A DNA stretch of 13,193 bases from Candidatus Hermodarchaeota archaeon (GTDB taxonomy: Archaea; Asgardarchaeota; Lokiarchaeia; Sigyniarchaeales; SOKP01). Under the pieces are notes generated by a model. That model was not told where the DNA came from, made no database searches, and saw nothing but the letters and a program-made list of their open reading frames with translations. Of this stretch, positions 4,120-12,283 are shown piece after piece. The stretch spans positions 1 to 13,193 of the forward strand of contig JBHLLG010000077.1 in the NCBI GenBank assembly GCA_048885925.1. Direction: 5' to 3'. Every line of letters begins with the position of its first letter. The stretch's first letter is position 1. Position numbers and translations under genes: made by a program.

Positions 4120-5187
4120 TTAAGCTATTTCTTTCGGTTCTTCCCTTGGTAATCTTTCTTCCACTGCTAAAATTTGTTTAAATTTTTTATGAGGTTCTGT
4201 CTGATACCAATATGCAGTAGACGACCAATCATCTGAACGTTGATTCGCATGGCCATGTTCAATTTTAACCTTTATGTTCTTATGAAAATAAATAGGATCT
4301 TCAATATGATATCGATAGTAGGAAATTTTTCCACTCCAATTCTTTCCACCTGGTAATATTATTCCAAAATATGGGGAACAATAATATTGATTTGGACACC
4401 AAGCTCCTCCGATGTAATCTTCAGTTCCAGTTCCATGAAGAATTACTTCTCCATCATCAATTTCAATGTAATCATCCCCTTCACCTGGCCAATTTTCTGT
4501 ATCTGTTTTAAACAAATTATGAATATCCAAATGACATCCAATATAATGACCCTCACCTTCTGCTTCTAATATTAAATAATCATCTTCGTGCGTAAGGTTT
4601 TCTTTACTAAACATTTCGGACTTCCAACCCCTTTCATTTAGTTTTTTGTAATCTTGACCTTTACAAGGGTTTTCTCGTGTCCAAAAAGTGTGAAATCTCC
4701 CTAAAGATTGATGGATTTCTTGATATTCCTCGTAATCAATATAATAATAAAGGATAAGTTGTTCTTGAGATTCATTCTCAACTTCAATCTTAACATTTTT
4801 AGAAAATGGCATCGGAAACCAGCAATTAAATCCTTTACCATCATTAGGACCCATAGAGAGTGGCAAACTCCAAAAGTTTACGGTTTTTGCATGACCAACT
4901 CCAAAAAAATCACCAATTGGACAAACAACTGAAGGATGCTCTTCATCATCCCACCACATTCGAATTACAGCTTTCCTTAAATAGTAAGGATCTTCAGAAG
5001 CAAGTGTCATCCAAATATGTTTTATAATACCCGAACAAGTTAAATCACATAGTTTAAATTTTTCTGTTTTTTCAATAATTTTAAAATCGGCATTGGCACC
5101 AGTTTTATCATAACTCGAGACTCGCCTTCTCTTAACCTCTCTTTTAACTTTTATTAAGTTCATTAAAGAACCAAATCCAAACTCCAT
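4120..5187 (-). CDS. DUF2961 / glycoside hydrolase family 172 protein (alpha-D-arabinofuranosidase / alpha-D-fructofuranosidase / DFA-I synthase-hydrolase-like), apparently cytoplasmic
   Basis: Motifs SSYDKTGANAD, GIIKHIWMT, WWDDEEHPSV.CPIGDFFG, NCWFPMPF, WPGEGDD (E236), HGTGTEDY.GGAW (E256), YRYHIEDPIYF, EHGHAN and SSTAYWYQ. No N-terminal hydrophobic signal peptide. Confidence 0.92.
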   Translation of the reverse strand: MEFGFGSLMNLIKVKREVKRRRVSSYDKTGANADFKIIEKTEKFKLCDLTCSGIIKHIWMTLASEDPYYLRKAVIRMWWDDEEHPSVVCPIGDFFGVGHAKTVNFWSLPLSMGPNDGKGFNCWFPMPFSKNVKIEVENESQEQLILYYYIDYEEYQEIHQSLGRFHTFWTRENPCKGQDYKKLNERGWKSEMFSKENLTHEDDYLILEAEGEGHYIGCHLDIHNLFKTDTENWPGEGDDYIEIDDGEVILHGTGTEDYIGGAWCPNQYYCSPYFGIILPGGKNWSGKISYYRYHIEDPIYFHKNIKVKIEHGHANQRSDDWSSTAYWYQTEPHKKFKQILAVEERLPREEPKEIA

Positions 5188-5346: not shown

Positions 5347-5763
5347 TTATTCTCCATGAACTTGTACATATACTTTTCGATTTCGCGGTCCATCATATTC
5401 CACAAACATTATTCCTTGCCATGTACCTAACATTAACCTGTTTTCATGTATTATTATATCCACAGAATGTCCTGTTAAAGTACATTTGATATGAGCATCA
5501 GAATTACCTTCACCATGTCTATAAGAATATCCCAATCCTCCACCTCTAGGAATTAATTTATTTAAATAATTACTAATATCTCTAATAACAGAAGGATCTG
5601 CATTCTCATTGATAGTAATTCCCGCAGTGGTATGAGGGACGAAGATTCGACATACTCCTTCTTCAATAGTAGTATTTCTGACAATTTTATTAATCTCATT
5701 TGTTATATCCACTAAAATCTCTCTTTCTGGAGTCTTAATTCTTAATTCATTAAATTCTATCAT
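5347..5763 (-). CDS. yjbQ: YjbQ/UPF0047 family protein (secondary thiamine-phosphate synthase-like)
   Basis: Motifs VDIT, HTTAGITINENADPSV..D, H.EGNSDAHIK, LGTWQGI.F.EYDGPR.R. RBS GGTGAT lies 3 nt upstream of the ATG. Confidence 0.95.
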   Translation of the reverse strand: MIEFNELRIKTPEREILVDITNEINKIVRNTTIEEGVCRIFVPHTTAGITINENADPSVIRDISNYLNKLIPRGGGLGYSYRHGEGNSDAHIKCTLTGHSVDIIIHENRLMLGTWQGIMFVEYDGPRNRKVYVQVHGE

Positions 5764-5805: not shown

Positions 5806-6576
5806 TTACCAATCATTAAAAGAACCATGTTTTCCCATCCCTTGTAAAAAAGATTTACTTCCTTCTAGATATTCTCCACTTTCTAAGGATTTTAAACCAA
5901 ATTCGAACTCTTTTCTCATAGCTTCTTCTAAATCTAATCCAAACTGATTGTATATAGAAAAACGATCATTTCTTAAGCATATTTGAGGAAATGACGCGAT
6001 AATTCTTGCTATTTTTAGGGTTTCCTGTTTTGATTGTCCAATGTCAACTATTCTATTTATTAATCCCCAATCATATGCTTCTTGAGCATTAACAGGACGT
6101 CCTGTAAGAATCATATCTAAAGCTCGACTTAATCCAATTAATCTCGGAAGTCGTATAGTACATCCATCGATAAGAGGAACACCAAATCGACGATTAAACA
6201 CTCCAAAAATAGCATCTTTTTCAGCAATGCGTAAATCACACCATAAAGCGAGTTCAAGTCCTCCTGCAACTGCATATCCTGATATTGCTGCAATCACTGG
6301 TTTGGATAGCAACATTCTCGTCGGTCCCATAGGTCCATCTCCCTCTTTCTCAATTCTATTCCCTTTCCCTTCAGAAATTGCTTTTAAATTTGCCCCAGAA
6401 CAAAATGTACCATTTGCTCCTTCTAGTATACCTACTAGAGCTTTTTCATCTTTTTCGAAATCACGGAATGCATTAGCAAGACTATTCGCAGTAGGACCAT
6501 CTACAGCGTTTTTTACTTCAGGATTGTCAATAGTTATTATATAAATTGGATATTTTTTTTCAATTAAAATAGGCAT
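5806..6576 (-). CDS. Crotonase/enoyl-CoA hydratase-isomerase family protein
   Basis: Motifs NAVDG, FCSGANL, GPMGPTRMLLSKPVIAAISGYAVAGGLELALWCDLR and FGVFNRRFGVPLIDG.T.RLPRLIG.SRALDMILTGR. Confidence 0.93.
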   Translation of the reverse strand: MPILIEKKYPIYIITIDNPEVKNAVDGPTANSLANAFRDFEKDEKALVGILEGANGTFCSGANLKAISEGKGNRIEKEGDGPMGPTRMLLSKPVIAAISGYAVAGGLELALWCDLRIAEKDAIFGVFNRRFGVPLIDGCTIRLPRLIGLSRALDMILTGRPVNAQEAYDWGLINRIVDIGQSKQETLKIARIIASFPQICLRNDRFSIYNQFGLDLEEAMRKEFEFGLKSLESGEYLEGSKSFLQGMGKHGSFNDW

Positions 6577-6633
6577 AAAGAATAAAAAAAATTAGAGAAA
6601 AAAAAATTTATCAGTATTAAAAAATGAAAAGAA
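6577..6633 (-). terminator. T-rich tract on the minus strand downstream of the oxidoreductase beta gene; candidate terminator
   Basis: The + strand has several A runs (e.g. AAAAAAAA and AAAAAAAAA), which are T runs on the coding strand right after the porB-like stop codon. Confidence 0.4.
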
Positions 6634-7722
6634 TTATTTTTGGTTCTTCAAATATTCATTCATCTCGACAAAACTGCTTGTCCTAATTAGTGCTGCTTTC
6701 AAAAATTGAAAGCCAATATCATATGTAGAGCCGTCACCTCCTATATGAATGACCCATGGAACTTCTTTTTCATAAAGATTTTTTGCTTTCATAATCTTTT
6801 TCGCAGTTGAGATAGCTTCAGCAACAGTTGCACCAGATTCAAATAAATGGTGAACCCAAGGAACATTCCAAGAAGTTACATTATCTTTTGAAGTGGAAAC
6901 CTCCGAACAACTTGTGTTATTTACATAAATAATATTCTTATCAGCAACAGCTGTTGCTGCTGTTGCCATTTGGTTCAATACCATTCCAGCACCACATCCA
7001 GGACATAGGCCATGACCTGGTTGTATATGAGTTTGAGGTCTCAATTTCTTCCTATTGACTCTATAAACATCAATAGATTTTTCTGCTCCGAATTTATCAA
7101 TAAGAGCTTTCAATTTATTATTTCTTTGTTCTGTTAAATAAATAATCTCGTCAATTTCTTTTTCCATAAATTTGGGTTTGAAAAGATGTCTAAATTTTCC
7201 CATCGATTTGAGATATTCTACAAACTTCTCTTTATCAATATCTAATCCACGAAAATATGAAAATATCGGGACTCCATCTTCAACACGAACAGTGTAAAGA
7301 GGCCAATATCCGCAATCTGTTGCTAGTTTTGATATTTTTAAAGCATCTGCAGCTTCATGTCTCCAGCCTCTCATGCAGTCTGAATAAGCTTGAATAAAAG
7401 CGGAACCATTTGATTTGAGCGCATCGGCAATTTTTCCCATAAAATCATTTGGATATGCTGGATTTACCGTAGCTAAAAAAAGCTTTTTAGTTCCATAGAA
7501 AGCAAATGGAGTGACTAAATCTTGTTTAACACCTATTTTACCAGGAATCTTTTCTCCTGCTGGACCTGTTGTTGTAGAAGCATAAGGTGGAGTTCCTCCG
7601 CTTTCTTGAATTCCTGTATTCATAAAGGCTTCATTATCGTAATTGAAAAATAGTACATTACTTTTTTGATTTCTGGTTAAAATATCTTCAAAATTAATAA
7701 TATTTCTCTCTGATTTTGACAT
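6634..7722 (-). CDS. porB: 2-oxoacid (pyruvate-type):ferredoxin oxidoreductase beta subunit, ThDP/[4Fe-4S]-binding, circularly permuted
   Basis: All PorB blocks are present but in swapped order: YDNEAFMNTGIQ.SG.TP, KQDL, AFIQAYSDC.RGW, GYWPLY and GKFRHL come first; GHGLCPGCG, TSCSEV, W.VPW.H.LFE and GGDGSTYDIGFQ come last. The likely start is the ATG at 7722, one base after the alpha-subunit TAA (TAA-A-ATG) and preceded by GGGGTGG. The ORF track start at 7740 is a TTG inside porA. Confidence 0.9.
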   Translation of the reverse strand: MSKSERNIINFEDILTRNQKSNVLFFNYDNEAFMNTGIQESGGTPPYASTTTGPAGEKIPGKIGVKQDLVTPFAFYGTKKLFLATVNPAYPNDFMGKIADALKSNGSAFIQAYSDCMRGWRHEAADALKISKLATDCGYWPLYTVRVEDGVPIFSYFRGLDIDKEKFVEYLKSMGKFRHLFKPKFMEKEIDEIIYLTEQRNNKLKALIDKFGAEKSIDVYRVNRKKLRPQTHIQPGHGLCPGCGAGMVLNQMATAATAVADKNIIYVNNTSCSEVSTSKDNVTSWNVPWVHHLFESGATVAEAISTAKKIMKAKNLYEKEVPWVIHIGGDGSTYDIGFQFLKAALIRTSSFVEMNEYLKNQK

Positions 7723-7723
7723 T

Positions 7724-8953
7724 TTAGCGATCCACCCCAAATATTTTTTCTTTAGTTTCTCTAACTCCCAGATATTGATATAATTGTCCTTTCATATTAT
7801 TTACAGATAACATTTTCCTTTTTACAATGTCAAATTCATCTCGAGTTACATCTCTCCCTCCCAAGCCAACAATAAAACTTCTAAAAATTGTGCTTAATGG
7901 ATATAAAGCCGAAGCAACTGACATAGAAAATGGAGGTAACATCCCATTTAATGAATCACTTTTTTCTAAGAGAATCAGTTTTTCAATATTATGTTCTTCT
8001 ATAATTTTTCTTAGTTCTTCATACGGGAATGGTCGATAAGCTCTTATTTTAATTAAACCTACATCCTTATTTTTTGTCATCCAACTTATGATATTACCAC
8101 ACATTGATCCCATTGTACAAAAAGCAGTTTTGGAAGAGTTATCTAAATTATAAGTTTCAATAAGTTTGTACTCTCTGCCTGTTTCTATTTCAAATTTATT
8201 GAAAACATTAATCATTTTACTTAAAACAGGCTTTTTAGCTTCCTCTAAATTTGCTCTTCCTTCCATAAAGTAAGAAGGAGTGACTATACCACCCCAAGTA
8301 CCTGGTTTTGAAGGATCTATAGTGTGTCTTGGCTTCTTTGGTGTCATTTTTCTAACTGATTCATCAGGAATTAGAGTCAACTTTTGTACAGAATGAGATA
8401 TAATAAATCCATCATGAACAAAGATAGTAGGAAAAAGTGAATCTTCTGAAATCATAACTGAAAGGATAGCTGCATCATAAGTCTCTTGAACGTTCTCAGA
8501 GACAATTATATTCCAACCTATTTCAGAATTTACTTGTGTGAATTCCCAAGAATTCCAAATGGATAAATTTGGTGAATTAAAAGCTCTGGCAGAAATCATC
8601 ATAGTTAAAGGCAATCTCCACCCTACTGCCATCGGGAGGGCTTCAGTCATTAATAAATATCCTTGACTTGCTGTTGCAGTAAATGATCTTGCTCCTGCTG
8701 CACAAGCAGCAGTTGAATAACTTATTGCGGCTAATTCTGATTCTACATTTACAAAAGCTGCTTTTAATCTTCCATGATGAACAACATCAGATAATCCTTC
8801 AACTGATTGGGTTTGTGGTGTGATGGGAAAAGCACATATTACATCTGGATCTGTTTGAGTGACTCCTCCAGCAACAGCATAATTTCCAATCATTGTAGTT
8901 TCTATAGGTTCTTTTATTTCTTTGAAAAATATTCTCATTGGTTCTATTGACAT
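7724..8953 (-). CDS. porA: 2-oxoacid (pyruvate-type):ferredoxin oxidoreductase alpha subunit
   Basis: Motifs GNYAVA, AFPITPQT, VESE (ThDP-activating Glu), RSFTATASQG, RLP, DGFIISH, GLIKIRAYRPFP and GLGGRD. The likely start is the ATG at 8953 with RBS GAGGTGA 5 nt upstream, rather than 8986. Confidence 0.93.
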   Translation of the reverse strand: MSIEPMRIFFKEIKEPIETTMIGNYAVAGGVTQTDPDVICAFPITPQTQSVEGLSDVVHHGRLKAAFVNVESELAAISYSTAACAAGARSFTATASQGYLLMTEALPMAVGWRLPLTMMISARAFNSPNLSIWNSWEFTQVNSEIGWNIIVSENVQETYDAAILSVMISEDSLFPTIFVHDGFIISHSVQKLTLIPDESVRKMTPKKPRHTIDPSKPGTWGGIVTPSYFMEGRANLEEAKKPVLSKMINVFNKFEIETGREYKLIETYNLDNSSKTAFCTMGSMCGNIISWMTKNKDVGLIKIRAYRPFPYEELRKIIEEHNIEKLILLEKSDSLNGMLPPFSMSVASALYPLSTIFRSFIVGLGGRDVTRDEFDIVKRKMLSVNNMKGQLYQYLGVRETKEKIFGVDR

Positions 8954-8967: not shown

Positions 8968-9957
8968 TTATTCTGGAGCGGCACAAGCTGCCGGACCTTG
9001 TTTCAATTTTTTACTAATAGCCTCTACTGGGCAAATTTCAAGACAATTTTGGCATGATTTACAATGGGATTGGTCAATACCTTTCATATGCCATAATCCA
9101 TCTTCTCCTTGTTCTCTAATAATAGCAAAATCTGGGCAAATATACCAGCATTGAGCACAATCAGTACATTTTTCTTCATCCCATATCATATCCCATTCAC
9201 CCCAAGAACCAGTATTTACTTGTTTGCTCCCAATTTCTATAACATCTTCATCGCAATACCATACTCCTGCTTCATCAACTTCCTTATAACCTGGCAAACC
9301 GGGATATACCTGTTGCCAAGGAACTTTTGTATCAATGGTGAAATCAAGATTAGGAGCATTTGAACTTTCATATACACAGGTTTCTTCATAAGCTCTTTTT
9401 ATAGCAGCTACATTTTTTCCAGCAATTTCCCCTTTAAATCGAAGCATTATTGCATCTGCTAGCGCATCAATAGAGAATATTGGAATAACTCGTATTAGGG
9501 CTCCTAGAATAATGGTGTTTGTAATATTTCTCCCAAGTATCTCCATTGCAATATTTAATGCATCTATAGTTGCAATATTTATGTCTGTTCTTCCAATAAT
9601 TCCTTGAATAGTAACTTGATCCAGTGTAGTATTTACAATAAGCCACCCTCCAGGCGCAAGTCCTGCCGTCACATCAATTTCTCCAAGGAGAGAAGGATCC
9701 AGTACAGAAACTGCATGTGGAGCATAAACTTGTTCATTAGTTCTCACCAATTCTTCATTTACACTAAGCCTAACATAACTTTCAGTGGGAGATCCCATAC
9801 GTTCTGCTCCAAAGAGAGGTTGACATACTCCATAACCATAAAAAGCTTCCACACATAAATTAGAAGCAGTAACTCCACCTTGTCCACCACGAGCGTGAAA
9901 CCTAAGATTAATTACATTTTCCTTTAAAATTTCTTTCATCTTTTCTGGAGTTAACAT
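8968..9957 (-). CDS. 2-oxoacid:ferredoxin oxidoreductase gamma-delta (PorC-PorD) fusion subunit with a 2x[4Fe-4S] ferredoxin domain
   Basis: The N-terminal gamma domain has RFHARGGQGGVTA, FGAERMGSP..SYVRLS, VLDPSL, NTIILGA and N..AI.RAYE. The C-terminal delta domain has TGSW, C264TDC267AQC270WYIC274P and C299KSC302QNC305LEIC309P. Confidence 0.92.
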   Translation of the reverse strand: MLTPEKMKEILKENVINLRFHARGGQGGVTASNLCVEAFYGYGVCQPLFGAERMGSPTESYVRLSVNEELVRTNEQVYAPHAVSVLDPSLLGEIDVTAGLAPGGWLIVNTTLDQVTIQGIIGRTDINIATIDALNIAMEILGRNITNTIILGALIRVIPIFSIDALADAIMLRFKGEIAGKNVAAIKRAYEETCVYESSNAPNLDFTIDTKVPWQQVYPGLPGYKEVDEAGVWYCDEDVIEIGSKQVNTGSWGEWDMIWDEEKCTDCAQCWYICPDFAIIREQGEDGLWHMKGIDQSHCKSCQNCLEICPVEAISKKLKQGPAACAAPE

Positions 9958-10103: not shown

Positions 10104-11351
10104 CTAATTAAATTCATTATTCAATTTATTTGCTACGTCCACACATAAGAGAAGAGTATATTTTATTCCTTTTTTGGAAACTAAATGCATATCATCTTTC
10201 TTGGTATGTACATATTTTAATCCTGGTTGAGAACCGAGCCAACAAGCCTCGAATCCCGCTTGAACAATTGGCATATAGTCAGACCAAGCTCCTGTAGGCA
10301 AATAAATATCTTTTATCTTAATATTCAATTCATTAGCACTGTCTAAAAATAACTTCGTTAATTTCTTGGAAGATGATCTACGAGGAATTCCATATGAAGT
10401 TATTAATCTAATAAAATCCTGACCTCCAATAGGATCGAGATTAATAAAGTATGTAGAATTTTTTTCTAATTCATTCTTATGTTTTTGAATAAAATTTGTT
10501 GCCCCTCCTAAATTCAATTCTTCAGAACTCGTACATAAGAACAGGAAATCAATATTATCTAAGGAATTGTTTCTAAAGTATTTACTTAGTTCAACAATGA
10601 CTCCTACTGCTGCTGCATTATCATACGCTCCAGGAGATTTGTTTCCTGTCTTATTAAAATAATTTAGATTGCTAAGTATAATAATTACAACACTTATATA
10701 TAACATAGAATAATTTAATATTTGGTTATTAAAAGGAAATATTAATTGAATGATAGACAAAATAAAATATAATAACAGCATGATTGTAAAACTAAAAAGG
10801 GTTATCATAAATAGAATTATTCTTATAGACGAAGGGAAAGTTTGTGATTTTGAGTCCCAATGCCCCATAAAGATAACTTTTGCCCTGGAATTTTTACTTT
10901 TAAATTCAATATAAATGTTTTCAGTTGGAAAATTCTTTTCTTCGTTTTTCAATAATTTAATTTCACTTGATGTTGCTAATCCAAGGATTCTAACACCAAT
11001 AAAAAGACTAACTAAAACTAATACTAGAGAGAACCAGTAGTTCATAAAAAACGATACTGCTAACGAGAGTAAACAAATCCCTAACGGTATAAAAGCATAT
11101 CTTAAGACTATCCAAATATAAAAAGAAGTTTTAAAACTTTCTCGATATACTGAATTAAAACCAACTTTTTTAAATTCATCTATAACAATTTCTTTAGCTT
11201 TTTTCTCTCCCTCTGTACCAATCAAACGAGGGAAGGCAAGTCTTTCTGCTATTCGATACGCATTATCTACATTAGGAATTTTTTCGGAAGACTTCTTATC
11301 TATTGCTATATGATTAGATTTTTTGACACTCATTTTAGATTTTAATGTCAT
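10104..11351 (-). CDS. M28-family zinc metallopeptidase with two inserted transmembrane hairpins
   Basis: Motifs PR..GTEGE, ENI, GH164WD166, PGAYD244NAAA, SE277E278LNL.G, INLD306, SDY.P and VH382T..D. Hydrophobic hairpins at about aa 78-125 and 178-230. The start overlaps the upstream stop (ATGA at 11351-11348). Confidence 0.88.
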   Translation of the reverse strand: MTLKSKMSVKKSNHIAIDKKSSEKIPNVDNAYRIAERLAFPRLIGTEGEKKAKEIVIDEFKKVGFNSVYRESFKTSFYIWIVLRYAFIPLGICLLSLAVSFFMNYWFSLVLVLVSLFIGVRILGLATSSEIKLLKNEEKNFPTENIYIEFKSKNSRAKVIFMGHWDSKSQTFPSSIRIILFMITLFSFTIMLLLYFILSIIQLIFPFNNQILNYSMLYISVVIIILSNLNYFNKTGNKSPGAYDNAAAVGVIVELSKYFRNNSLDNIDFLFLCTSSEELNLGGATNFIQKHKNELEKNSTYFINLDPIGGQDFIRLITSYGIPRRSSSKKLTKLFLDSANELNIKIKDIYLPTGAWSDYMPIVQAGFEACWLGSQPGLKYVHTKKDDMHLVSKKGIKYTLLLCVDVANKLNNEFN

Positions 11352-12283
11352 ATCTCTTTGTTATTTAAAAAATATTTAAACCACTCGATTGGAAGTACTT
11401 TTTTTACCTTTTCCAAAAATTCTTTTATCGTTAATATCCCTAATTCAGATATAATTCCGGAAATATATTCGGGTGGGGTAATATCAAAATAAAAATTATG
11501 AACCTCCAAAAACTTATTTATTATCTCTTTATCATAAACTTCTCTTATTGGTTTTTCCTTAATTAGTACACTATAACCATAATGACTTTTTAAGTTGTAT
11601 TTATACGAGTCGCAGACTGCGTAAACTTTTACCTTACTGGTGCTAGCTAATACAGCCAAGGTAAATGTGCCCACCTTATTGATAATCGAACCATCTTTTA
11701 ATATACTGTCAACTCCTATTAAAACTACATCTATCTCATCAATAAAATTTCCCATGGCACTATCTATAATTAGATGTGTTTTAAAACGTGAAGATAAAAT
11801 TTCAGCAACGTGTTGTCCCTCAAGGAGAGGTCTTGATTCCAGTACATAAATTTCAAATTCATATTCTTTATTTTTCAATAATAAGTTGATAATCGTTGAG
11901 CTATAAGATATTAACATTATTTTCAATGGAATTTTTTTATTCTCTTTTAAAAATGTTTGAAAGGCAAATTCTAAGGATTTCATTATTTTTTCTCTGTAAA
12001 TCTTAAACTGATTCAACTTTTCCTCTATAGCATTTTTATTTATTTTTTCTAAATCGTGAATCAGATATCCCATGGTATTGATAAGGGGAGCCATACTTGG
12101 ATGGGTATCAATTATTTGTTTTAACAAATATATAAGATCTTCTTTTATGTCTTTGTACGGATCAATAACCTGTTCAAGTTGAATTTTAATTATTTCAAGA
12201 GCTTTATCAATAAATTCACTAGCTCCAGAGGAGTTATCCTCTCTTAATTCTCTAATAATATCTTGAGTATTCTGGATTTTCAA
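11348..12283 (-). CDS. eIF-2B alpha/beta/delta (IF-2B) family protein, aIF2B-like; probably not an active MtnA or ribose-1,5-bisphosphate isomerase
   Basis: Motifs DNSSGASE, HPSMAPL, ISYSSTI, VLESRPLLEG, IDSA, IGVDSI..DG.IINKVGT and FDITP..YISGIISELG. TTG start. Confidence 0.88.
   Translation of the reverse strand: MKIQNTQDIIRELREDNSSGASEFIDKALEIIKIQLEQVIDPYKDIKEDLIYLLKQIIDTHPSMAPLINTMGYLIHDLEKINKNAIEEKLNQFKIYREKIMKSLEFAFQTFLKENKKIPLKIMLISYSSTIINLLLKNKEYEFEIYVLESRPLLEGQHVAEILSSRFKTHLIIDSAMGNFIDEIDVVLIGVDSILKDGSIINKVGTFTLAVLASTSKVKVYAVCDSYKYNLKSHYGYSVLIKEKPIREVYDKEIINKFLEVHNFYFDITPPEYISGIISELGILTIKEFLEKVKKVLPIEWFKYFLNNKEI

Follow-up and report, generated by a model that had tools for sequence, protein, structure and literature searches.

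A circularly permuted PorB-type beta subunit of a probable 2-oxoacid:ferredoxin oxidoreductase in Lokiarchaeia

Enzymes that depend on thiamin diphosphate (ThDP) are recognized by the sequence signature GDG-X(~25-30)-N. In archaeal four-subunit pyruvate:ferredoxin oxidoreductase (PFOR) the genes are ordered gamma, delta, alpha, beta (November 2026 review of PFOR diversity). The oxalate oxidoreductase of Moorella thermoacetica (5c4i, 5exd, 5exe) is encoded by three genes, one of them for a fused gamma-delta type subunit. Here we describe a gene for a PorB-type beta subunit whose two halves are swapped. It lies in a 13,193-nucleotide stretch of DNA from Candidatus Hermodarchaeota archaeon (GenBank assembly GCA_048885925.1, contig JBHLLG010000077.1), the whole of which we refer to as the window. 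Very probably the protein is a functional natural circular permutant of PorB/VorB beta, acting in a three-gene 2-oxoacid:ferredoxin oxidoreductase (OFOR) that consists of a gamma-delta fusion, an alpha and a beta subunit. Its operon has the same gene order as that of the Methanosarcina acetivorans PFOR, but gamma and delta are fused. Both halves of the permuted beta are homologous to the PorB of the four-subunit enzyme (9bt4_C; 161 bits in total, 31% identity over the structurally aligned part), and the two proteins share the cluster cysteines, the GDG, YDNE and MNTG motifs and, for the first half, the fold (Z 12.8). They differ in that the permuted beta has its halves reversed, has its termini inside the GDG-X-N motif and measures 362 instead of 291-296 aa. 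Comparison with oxalate oxidoreductase gives a similar picture. The gamma-delta protein of the window matches the OxalOxreddelta model over residues 52-315, and the two beta halves are homologous (145 bits) and match structurally (Z 12.5-12.7), but the oxalate oxidoreductase beta has the canonical order and all three window subunits score far under the NCBIfam OOR cut-offs.

Rearranged ThDP enzymes have been described at other levels of organization. According to the available part of a preprint (bioRxiv 10.1101/2021.03.21.436335), ThDP enzyme families differ in domain order, PP-PYR-x versus PYR-x-PP, which is called circular permutation. As in the permuted beta, parts are rearranged around one ThDP site, but there whole domains have moved and GDG...N is contiguous, whereas in the permuted beta the break falls within the PP domain and cuts the motif itself. 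As far as the accessible text of these sources goes, this order of whole domains is the only circular permutation that we found described for ThDP enzymes. The split-gene transketolase of Carboxydothermus hydrogenoformans is, in the part of the article available to us (PMC7661550), an interrupted yet active ThDP enzyme made of two polypeptides, while the permuted beta is a single chain. Full-text literature searches returned no description in print of a permuted OFOR beta subunit. The terms 'permut', 'Asgard' and 'Loki' do not occur in the November 2026 review of PFOR diversity, whose section on subunit and domain arrangements lists none inside domain VI. This agrees with the original prediction, made from the DNA sequence of the window, that no such subunit had been described. 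For enzymology, a signature that has been cut and placed at opposite chain ends, with all ligand residues kept, offers a natural experiment on the chain connectivity that a cofactor site requires.

On the minus strand of the window, translation from the ATG at 7722 gives a single open frame of 362 codons followed by a stop codon. The listing of open reading frames (ORFs) starts the gene upstream at TTG 7740, but ATG 7722 is the likelier start, because full-length homologues mostly have 356-363 aa (a few up to 369) and because the TAA stop codon of porA ends 1 nt upstream of it. A base-by-base check confirmed the predicted positions of YDNE (7641-7630), GHGLCPGCG (7017-6991) and GGDG (6741-6730). 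That all four cluster cysteines are kept is likewise correct, but they had been numbered C122, C246, C249 and C278 on the TTG-started ORF. Counted from ATG 7722 they are C116, C240, C243 and C272, and the candidate Mg ligands are D330 and N30.

The reversed order emerges from a phmmer search against all PDB sequences. The protein matches 9bt4_C (PorB of the M. acetivorans PFOR, 296 aa; overall E 2.5e-46) in two stretches whose order is inverted: residues 226-347 correspond to 9bt4_C 3-115 (independent E-value 1.9e-17) and residues 23-193 to 9bt4_C 119-282 (8.7e-26). The same holds for the oxalate oxidoreductase beta (5c4i_C; E 2e-41), in which query residues 225-347 correspond to 9-127 and 22-187 to 130-290. 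Since the E-values per half range from 1e-17 to 1e-26, chance similarity is not an issue. A BLASTP comparison with a canonical paralogue encoded in the same genome also recovered the halves in reversed order, as had been predicted. Because the halves match PorB residues 3-115 and 119-282, the break must lie between PorB residues 115 and 119, which bears out the proposal that the new termini fall in the loop between the post-GDG helix and the YDN strand. As a result, D330 and N30 are separated by 300 residues in the permuted chain, compared to a canonical spacing of ~27. Homology to both halves of the PP domain, found with phmmer and with NCBIfam, places the protein among the PorB/VorB-type (domain VI) subunits. 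However, the NCBIfam PorB model NF008819 matches in two stretches that are not colinear with it and reaches 204 bits, against a cut-off of 405. This low score is caused by the reversed order and not by divergence. The Pfam TPP_enzyme_C match is restricted to residues 19-111 and to profile positions 71-150 of 151. Thus, standard hidden Markov models partly miss the protein, as anticipated.

The old termini have been joined directly. In profile-profile alignments query residues 170-213 align with the helix at the canonical C-terminus through its final residue (probability 96.8), and the old N-terminal half can be aligned from PorB residue 3 onward. Since the alignments reach both canonical ends, the ~32 residues at the junction (194-225) represent the native C-terminus abutting the native N-terminus, and neither phmmer nor profile-profile alignment detected a foreign linker between them. 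The gene therefore contains, in one ORF, two swapped homologous segments that are joined via native termini, as in a natural permutant. Such direct joining is compatible with a tandem duplication in which the copies were fused in frame and the outer parts lost, and it fits equally well a fission followed by re-fusion in swapped order. The latter route, in which the gene would have split at the GDG/YDN loop and the two ORFs would have been fused again in reverse order, without tandem duplication, in-frame fusion and truncation, is possible but doubtful. The direct joining of native termini that it requires is observed, although either route would produce it. The loop tolerates interruption, as shown by inteins in the ThDP motif region of canonical homologues, and the two new tails have no detectable similarity to each other: a tail-versus-head comparison aimed at relics of a duplication found nothing (probability 0.3). 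On the other hand, no convincing split forms were found among the best 150 of 1286 representative matches. The alignment to canonical profiles, moreover, passes the break weakly on both sides, as relics of a duplication would, albeit at near-zero confidence. Fifteen 'second-half-only' and two 'first-half-only' representatives, considered as natural split forms, were rejected as family fragments, contig-edge pieces, calls from an internal Met or intein remnants. Two canonical-order representatives carry LAGLIDADG inteins, one (P0126, 852 aa) just ahead of the CYDNE strand, a few residues from the permuted termini, and the other (P0200, 413 aa) just past GDG. The closeness of the former site to the permuted termini is probably a coincidence, as inteins favour conserved cofactor sites.

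An AlphaFold2 single-chain model, built with 67 family sequences, is compact (mean pLDDT 84.6, pTM 0.89). Its confident strands comprise residues 23-29 (ending in YD), 80-86, 107-113, 264-269, 289-292 and 323-329 (ending in GGD), which we read as the six strands of a PP-domain sheet in the predicted order 4-5-6-1-2-3. The N-tail is modelled as a short strand and a helix, and the post-GDG helix continues through the C-tail. Residues 10-210 of the model superpose on the C-terminal half of domain VI/PorB (Z 12.5-14.4, root-mean-square deviation 2.3-3.6 A, 173-190 residues aligned), and an unbiased scan of 48,161 representative chains yielded Z values of 12.8-13.4 with 179-184 residues aligned. 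No solved chain with the whole permuted connectivity was found, the longest alignment at Z >= 8 covering 190 residues (184 among the 48,161 representatives). Partial coverage of this kind is what a sequential aligner must give for a permutant, as it is unable to align the second half at the same time as the first. The ESM Atlas returned only generic TPP_enzyme_C clusters, without a model.

On these grounds the permuted enzyme may be pictured as follows. The old C-terminal half, which now comes first, contributes the YDN strand and the MNTG loop together with the fourth cluster cysteine and the C-terminal helix. It is followed by the old N-terminal half with the CxxC motif, the third cysteine and the GDG strand and helix, the old termini being fused directly. 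Most likely the two halves fold into the usual PP-domain sheet, with its strands in a different order. In the modelled fold D330, close to the C-terminal end, and N30, close to the N-terminal end, would be adjacent and could together form the Mg-ThDP diphosphate site, and C240, C243, C272 and C116 would hold the proximal [4Fe-4S] cluster. The beta subunit would assemble with alpha and gamma-delta to catalyse the oxidative decarboxylation of a 2-oxoacid to acyl-CoA, with reduction of ferredoxin.

Both chain ends come to lie at the predicted cofactor site. We consider it improbable that the permutation is an adaptive rewiring and not a neutral reshuffle, with the Mg-ThDP site at the chain ends closing when the N30 strand, which is made first, docks onto the D330 strand, which is made last, possibly across the beta-beta' dimer. 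If this were true, cofactor loading, assembly control or half-of-sites coupling would proceed in a mode unlike any described ThDP enzyme, and the conserved structured tails would act as a clasp. Distinctly improbable, too, is a ThDP site completed in trans, in which the YDN strand from one beta and the GDG strand from its partner would come together in a domain swap that makes dimerisation obligatory for cofactor binding. Such a swap would suit the position of both new termini at the cofactor loop and the fact that both tails are conserved and modelled as structured, and the solved OFORs are all dimers of the core (November 2026 review of PFOR diversity). The monomer model, however, is compact with both strands confident, which suggests a site formed in cis, bearing in mind that a single-chain prediction cannot show a swap.

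Residue conservation was determined in 102 full-length members of the family, which are 55-88% identical to the window protein. Invariant in all 102 are Y28, D29, N30, E31, N35, T36, G37, C116, G119 and W120 as well as C240, C243, C272, G329, D330, G331 and D335, and the MNTG loop and the GW and WP motifs show no or almost no variation. The Asp of GDG and the Asn of the following strand, which are the Mg-ThDP ligands in this enzyme class, are thus both present as the candidate residues D330 and N30. C240, C243, C272 and C116 align with cysteines of 9bt4_C, 5c4i_C and 1b0p_A, and we take them, from what is known of the D. africanus PFOR, to be the [4Fe-4S] ligands. The claim that the cluster cysteines and the Asn of MNTG are retained therefore holds for all 102 full-length members. 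Selection was estimated from a comparison with 35 ungapped orthologues as the ratio of nonsynonymous to synonymous differences (pN/pS), synonymous sites being close to saturation. The overall ratio is 0.14, with values of 0.37 for the N-tail, 0.10 for the first core, 0.19 for the junction, 0.16 for the second core and 0.10 for the C-tail. Judged by these ratios, every region is under purifying selection, including the junction and the new tails.

The gene is part of an operon whose order is almost always porGD-porA-porB. Locus statistics were drawn from 80 loci of one-genome-per-species collections. In 75 of them porA lies directly upstream of the permuted beta, the other five having no upstream DNA, and the fused gamma-delta gene is present in 64. 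The permuted beta is hence found together with alpha (domains I and II) and gamma/delta (domains III and V) partners. Among ten divergent genomes, nine also have porA directly upstream. The tenth (G278:C1, a single contig) has beta at ~1.50 Mb (L095) and gamma-delta/alpha at ~2.05 Mb (L096), ~540 kb apart, which means that operon linkage and translational coupling are not obligatory. The proposed translational coupling to porA can accordingly be inferred for the window from the 1-nt spacer, but it is not general. The alpha partner shares the phyletic range of the permuted beta, and the best match to it from outside the class that carries both is 39% identical, so that the whole enzyme forms a distinct lineage. 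The ITPQT, ESE and Arg motifs of alpha are invariant, and presumably they have the catalytic roles assigned to them in PFOR. The pocket residues of the permuted enzyme resemble those of POR/VOR, and from its residues, its partners and, in part, its fold we infer a POR/VOR-type OFOR, the substrate of which would be a 2-oxoacid.

The same layout recurs in independent genomes. In a search across 5.8 billion proteins, the 120 matches listed are without exception proteins with YDN at about residue 28, CxGC at about 240 and GDG at about 329, or pieces of such proteins. A search with the junction only (residues 150-275) gave 140 matches, and all of the 120 listed belong to the permuted beta family. 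One of them, 'hypothetical protein [Candidatus Lokiarchaeum ossiferum]', sits on a 6.27-Mb contig. In the one-genome-per-species collections 120 species encode the permuted beta. The 80 loci, which include a closed chromosome of a metagenome-assembled genome (MAG), match in a single piece over nearly the whole query, three of them ending at contig edges. Finally, a survey of 399 genomes of the phylum (E <= 1e-60) detected the permuted layout in 129, five of which are single-contig assemblies. At the level of raw assemblies, Logan contigs from four runs of four studies show no joints on 6500-7900. All four runs cross the porA/porB boundary, and the old-termini junction is bridged by one contig each from two runs (6850/6854-7258). 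Two checks that had been proposed with the original prediction thus turned out in its favour: independent genomes have the same block order, and both junction regions are spanned without a break (6850-7258 and 7226-7900).

Within the phylum, the permuted beta is found in 128 of 160 genomes of one class and in 1 of the 239 genomes elsewhere, in line with the suggestion that it might be a lineage marker. By group it occurs in 105/133 (f1), 1/1 (f2), 12/14 (f3), 4/4 (f4), 1/3 (f5), 2/2 (f6) and 2/2 (f7) genomes. The sole match outside the class, in genome G075 (G075:C23 and G075:C29), is a porA/porB fragment that is 89-91% identical and lies on short contigs. This genome has an estimated contamination of ~8%, and the match is probably foreign or mis-binned. 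Record titles mostly name Promethearchaeota or Promethearchaeia (Lokiarchaeia), with few Thor-, Hod-, Odin- or Hermodarchaeota and one bacterium. Because nearly identical proteins bear different labels, we trust the genome-based grouping above the labels. The locus titled Nanopelagicaceae bacterium in the species collections is probably mis-binned.

Several observations speak against a functional permutant. The genome also has two canonical PorB-type paralogues, and the permuted copy need therefore not carry the main POR function. No match was found in 32 of the 160 class genomes, some of them 99% complete, which implies that the enzyme is dispensable. Sequential structure alignments cover only about 175-190 of the 362 residues. 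Moreover, residues 32-41, the ThDP/substrate loop, and residues 52-65 of the model are below pLDDT 50, which would be expected in the absence of alpha and the cofactors, yet is not reassuring. The split of the hallmark ThDP motif, the canonical paralogues, the roughly one fifth of class genomes without a family member and the poorly modelled loop would all be compatible with a degenerate, non-catalytic beta-like protein, either a scaffold or a paralogue in decay that has lost ThDP binding. It is hard to reconcile such decay with Mg/ThDP and cluster residues that are invariant down to 55% identity, with core pN/pS values of 0.10-0.16 or with a dedicated alpha partner that co-occurs and has kept its catalytic motifs, and we regard it as very unlikely. 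An assembly chimera or misjoin of two porB copies, which might be suspected because the window is a 13-kb MAG contig from a genome with two further porB-type genes, can practically be dismissed, since the same order is found in 129 of the 399 surveyed phylum genomes, five single-contig ones included, and in species genomes produced with many assemblers, since Logan contigs of other studies span both junctions without joints, and since the two other genes, which have the canonical order, are 31-38% identical to the permuted one and hence cannot be the source of its halves. Independent and closed genomes, bridging contigs, invariant cofactor residues, purifying selection, the operon and a confident predicted fold all support the view that the protein is a functional natural permutant, and neither debris nor a chimera.

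We then placed the permuted proteins among canonical ones. Searching 1.84 billion representatives, taken at 50% identity, gave 1286 matches, and among the best 150 of these only two proteins (P0122 and P0123), plus fragments, have the permuted layout. The remaining 131 two-segment matches among these 150 have the canonical order. For the trees the two segments were aligned separately and then concatenated, using 84 canonical and 33 permuted sequences for FastTree, and all 84 canonical and 17 of the 33 permuted sequences for SH-aLRT (IQ-TREE -fast). The permuted proteins form one clade with a long stem and a support of 1.0 (FastTree) and 100 (SH-aLRT). On this sequence evidence, the permutation has a single origin, which dates to the ancestor of one Asgard class (Lokiarchaeia/Promethearchaeia) or earlier, and has persisted from then on. 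In both trees two canonical-order representatives, P0233 and P0195, adjoin the permuted clade (support 0.966 and 98.6), of which they are the apparent sister. P0233 is an alpha-beta fusion and P0195 may be a fragment of such a fusion. The alpha part of P0233 and the alpha of the window share only 29% identity, and no close relative of P0233 was found in the 399 phylum genomes, the best match being 34-37% identical and read through stop codons.

As a rare genomic change whose distribution is clean, the permuted beta could serve as a marker. NCBI names among the matches listed read 'hypothetical protein' in 26 of 26 cases. Reconstructions of metabolism in Lokiarchaeia, which are relevant to models of how eukaryotes arose, can for this lineage show alpha and gamma-delta without a beta, or miss one 2-oxoacid oxidoreductase entirely.

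The features of the locus and its surroundings are compiled in Table 1. For the UPF0047 family a weak thiamin phosphate synthase activity has reportedly been found. If this is true, the position of such a gene next to a ThDP enzyme would be suggestive.

Table 1. Coordinates of the permuted beta gene, its segments, its operon partners and neighbouring genes in the window, and of the insert in related loci.
Feature	Position	Strand	Remarks
Circularly permuted PorB-type beta subunit gene (domain VI: PP domain + proximal [4Fe-4S] site)	6634..7722	-	362 codons, stop 6634-6636
New N-terminal tail, aa 1-19	7666..7722	-	modelled short strand (6-10) + helix (11-15); conservation below that of the cores
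Segment B, old C-terminal half, aa 20-193	7144..7665	-	YDNE strand (7630-7641), MNTG, C116 (7375-7377), GYWPLY motif
Old-termini junction, aa 194-225	7048..7143	-	end of old C-terminal helix, then directly old N-terminal lead
Segment A, old N-terminal half, aa 226-347	6682..7047	-	C240 + C243 (CPGC, 6994-7005), C272 (6907-6909), GGDG (6730-6741) + post-GDG helix
New C-terminal tail, aa 348-362	6637..6681	-	modelled as extension of post-GDG helix; 348-358 conserved
porA-type alpha subunit (domains I and II)	7724..8953	-	stop codon 1 nt ahead of beta ATG
Fused gamma-delta subunit (POR domain III + 2x[4Fe-4S] ferredoxin domain)	8968..9957	-	
Enoyl-CoA hydratase/isomerase family gene	5806..6576	-	downstream of beta; also downstream in 37/80 related loci
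UPF0047 (YjbQ family) gene	5347-5763	-	downstream of operon in 38/80 related loci
DUF2961 protein gene	4120-5187	-	
Membrane-anchored M28 peptidase gene	10104-11351	-	upstream of operon in 26/80 loci
IF-2B-family (sugar-phosphate isomerase-like) gene	11348-12283	-	upstream of operon in 22/80 loci
Insert in permuted porB of related genomes	L079:3032-3061; same site in L097 (G163), L084/L098 (G159), L099 (G272)		

Some members of the family differ from the window protein by short insertions. Some (L076:2326-3426 and L079) have an acidic insertion of ~4 residues just ahead of the GGDG strand, which shows that the loop ahead of the last sheet strand varies in length. In 4 of the 160 class genomes the permuted porB is interrupted by an insert of 30-31 nt at the identical site, between MNTG and an Ile codon, where the window reads GGA ATT CAA without an insert (at about 7606-7614, minus strand). 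An in-frame stop codon is present in every insert (TGA in three of them and TAG in the fourth), and the one of 31 nt shifts the frame as well, while the remaining ORF is intact. The 264-aa P0104 comes from one such copy, whose gene was called in truncated form. Although their sequences differ, the inserts have in common a hairpin of 7-9 bp in which four of the 21 predicted pairs are changed on both sides, that is, in a compensatory manner. Cuts two bases 3' of a 3-4 bp helix, on each of its strands, would restore the Ile codon in all four, a predicted geometry that resembles a relaxed bulge-helix-bulge splice motif. Introns in archaeal mRNA have a precedent in cbf5 of Crenarchaeota, and the 30-31 nt insert may be a candidate archaeal mRNA mini-intron.

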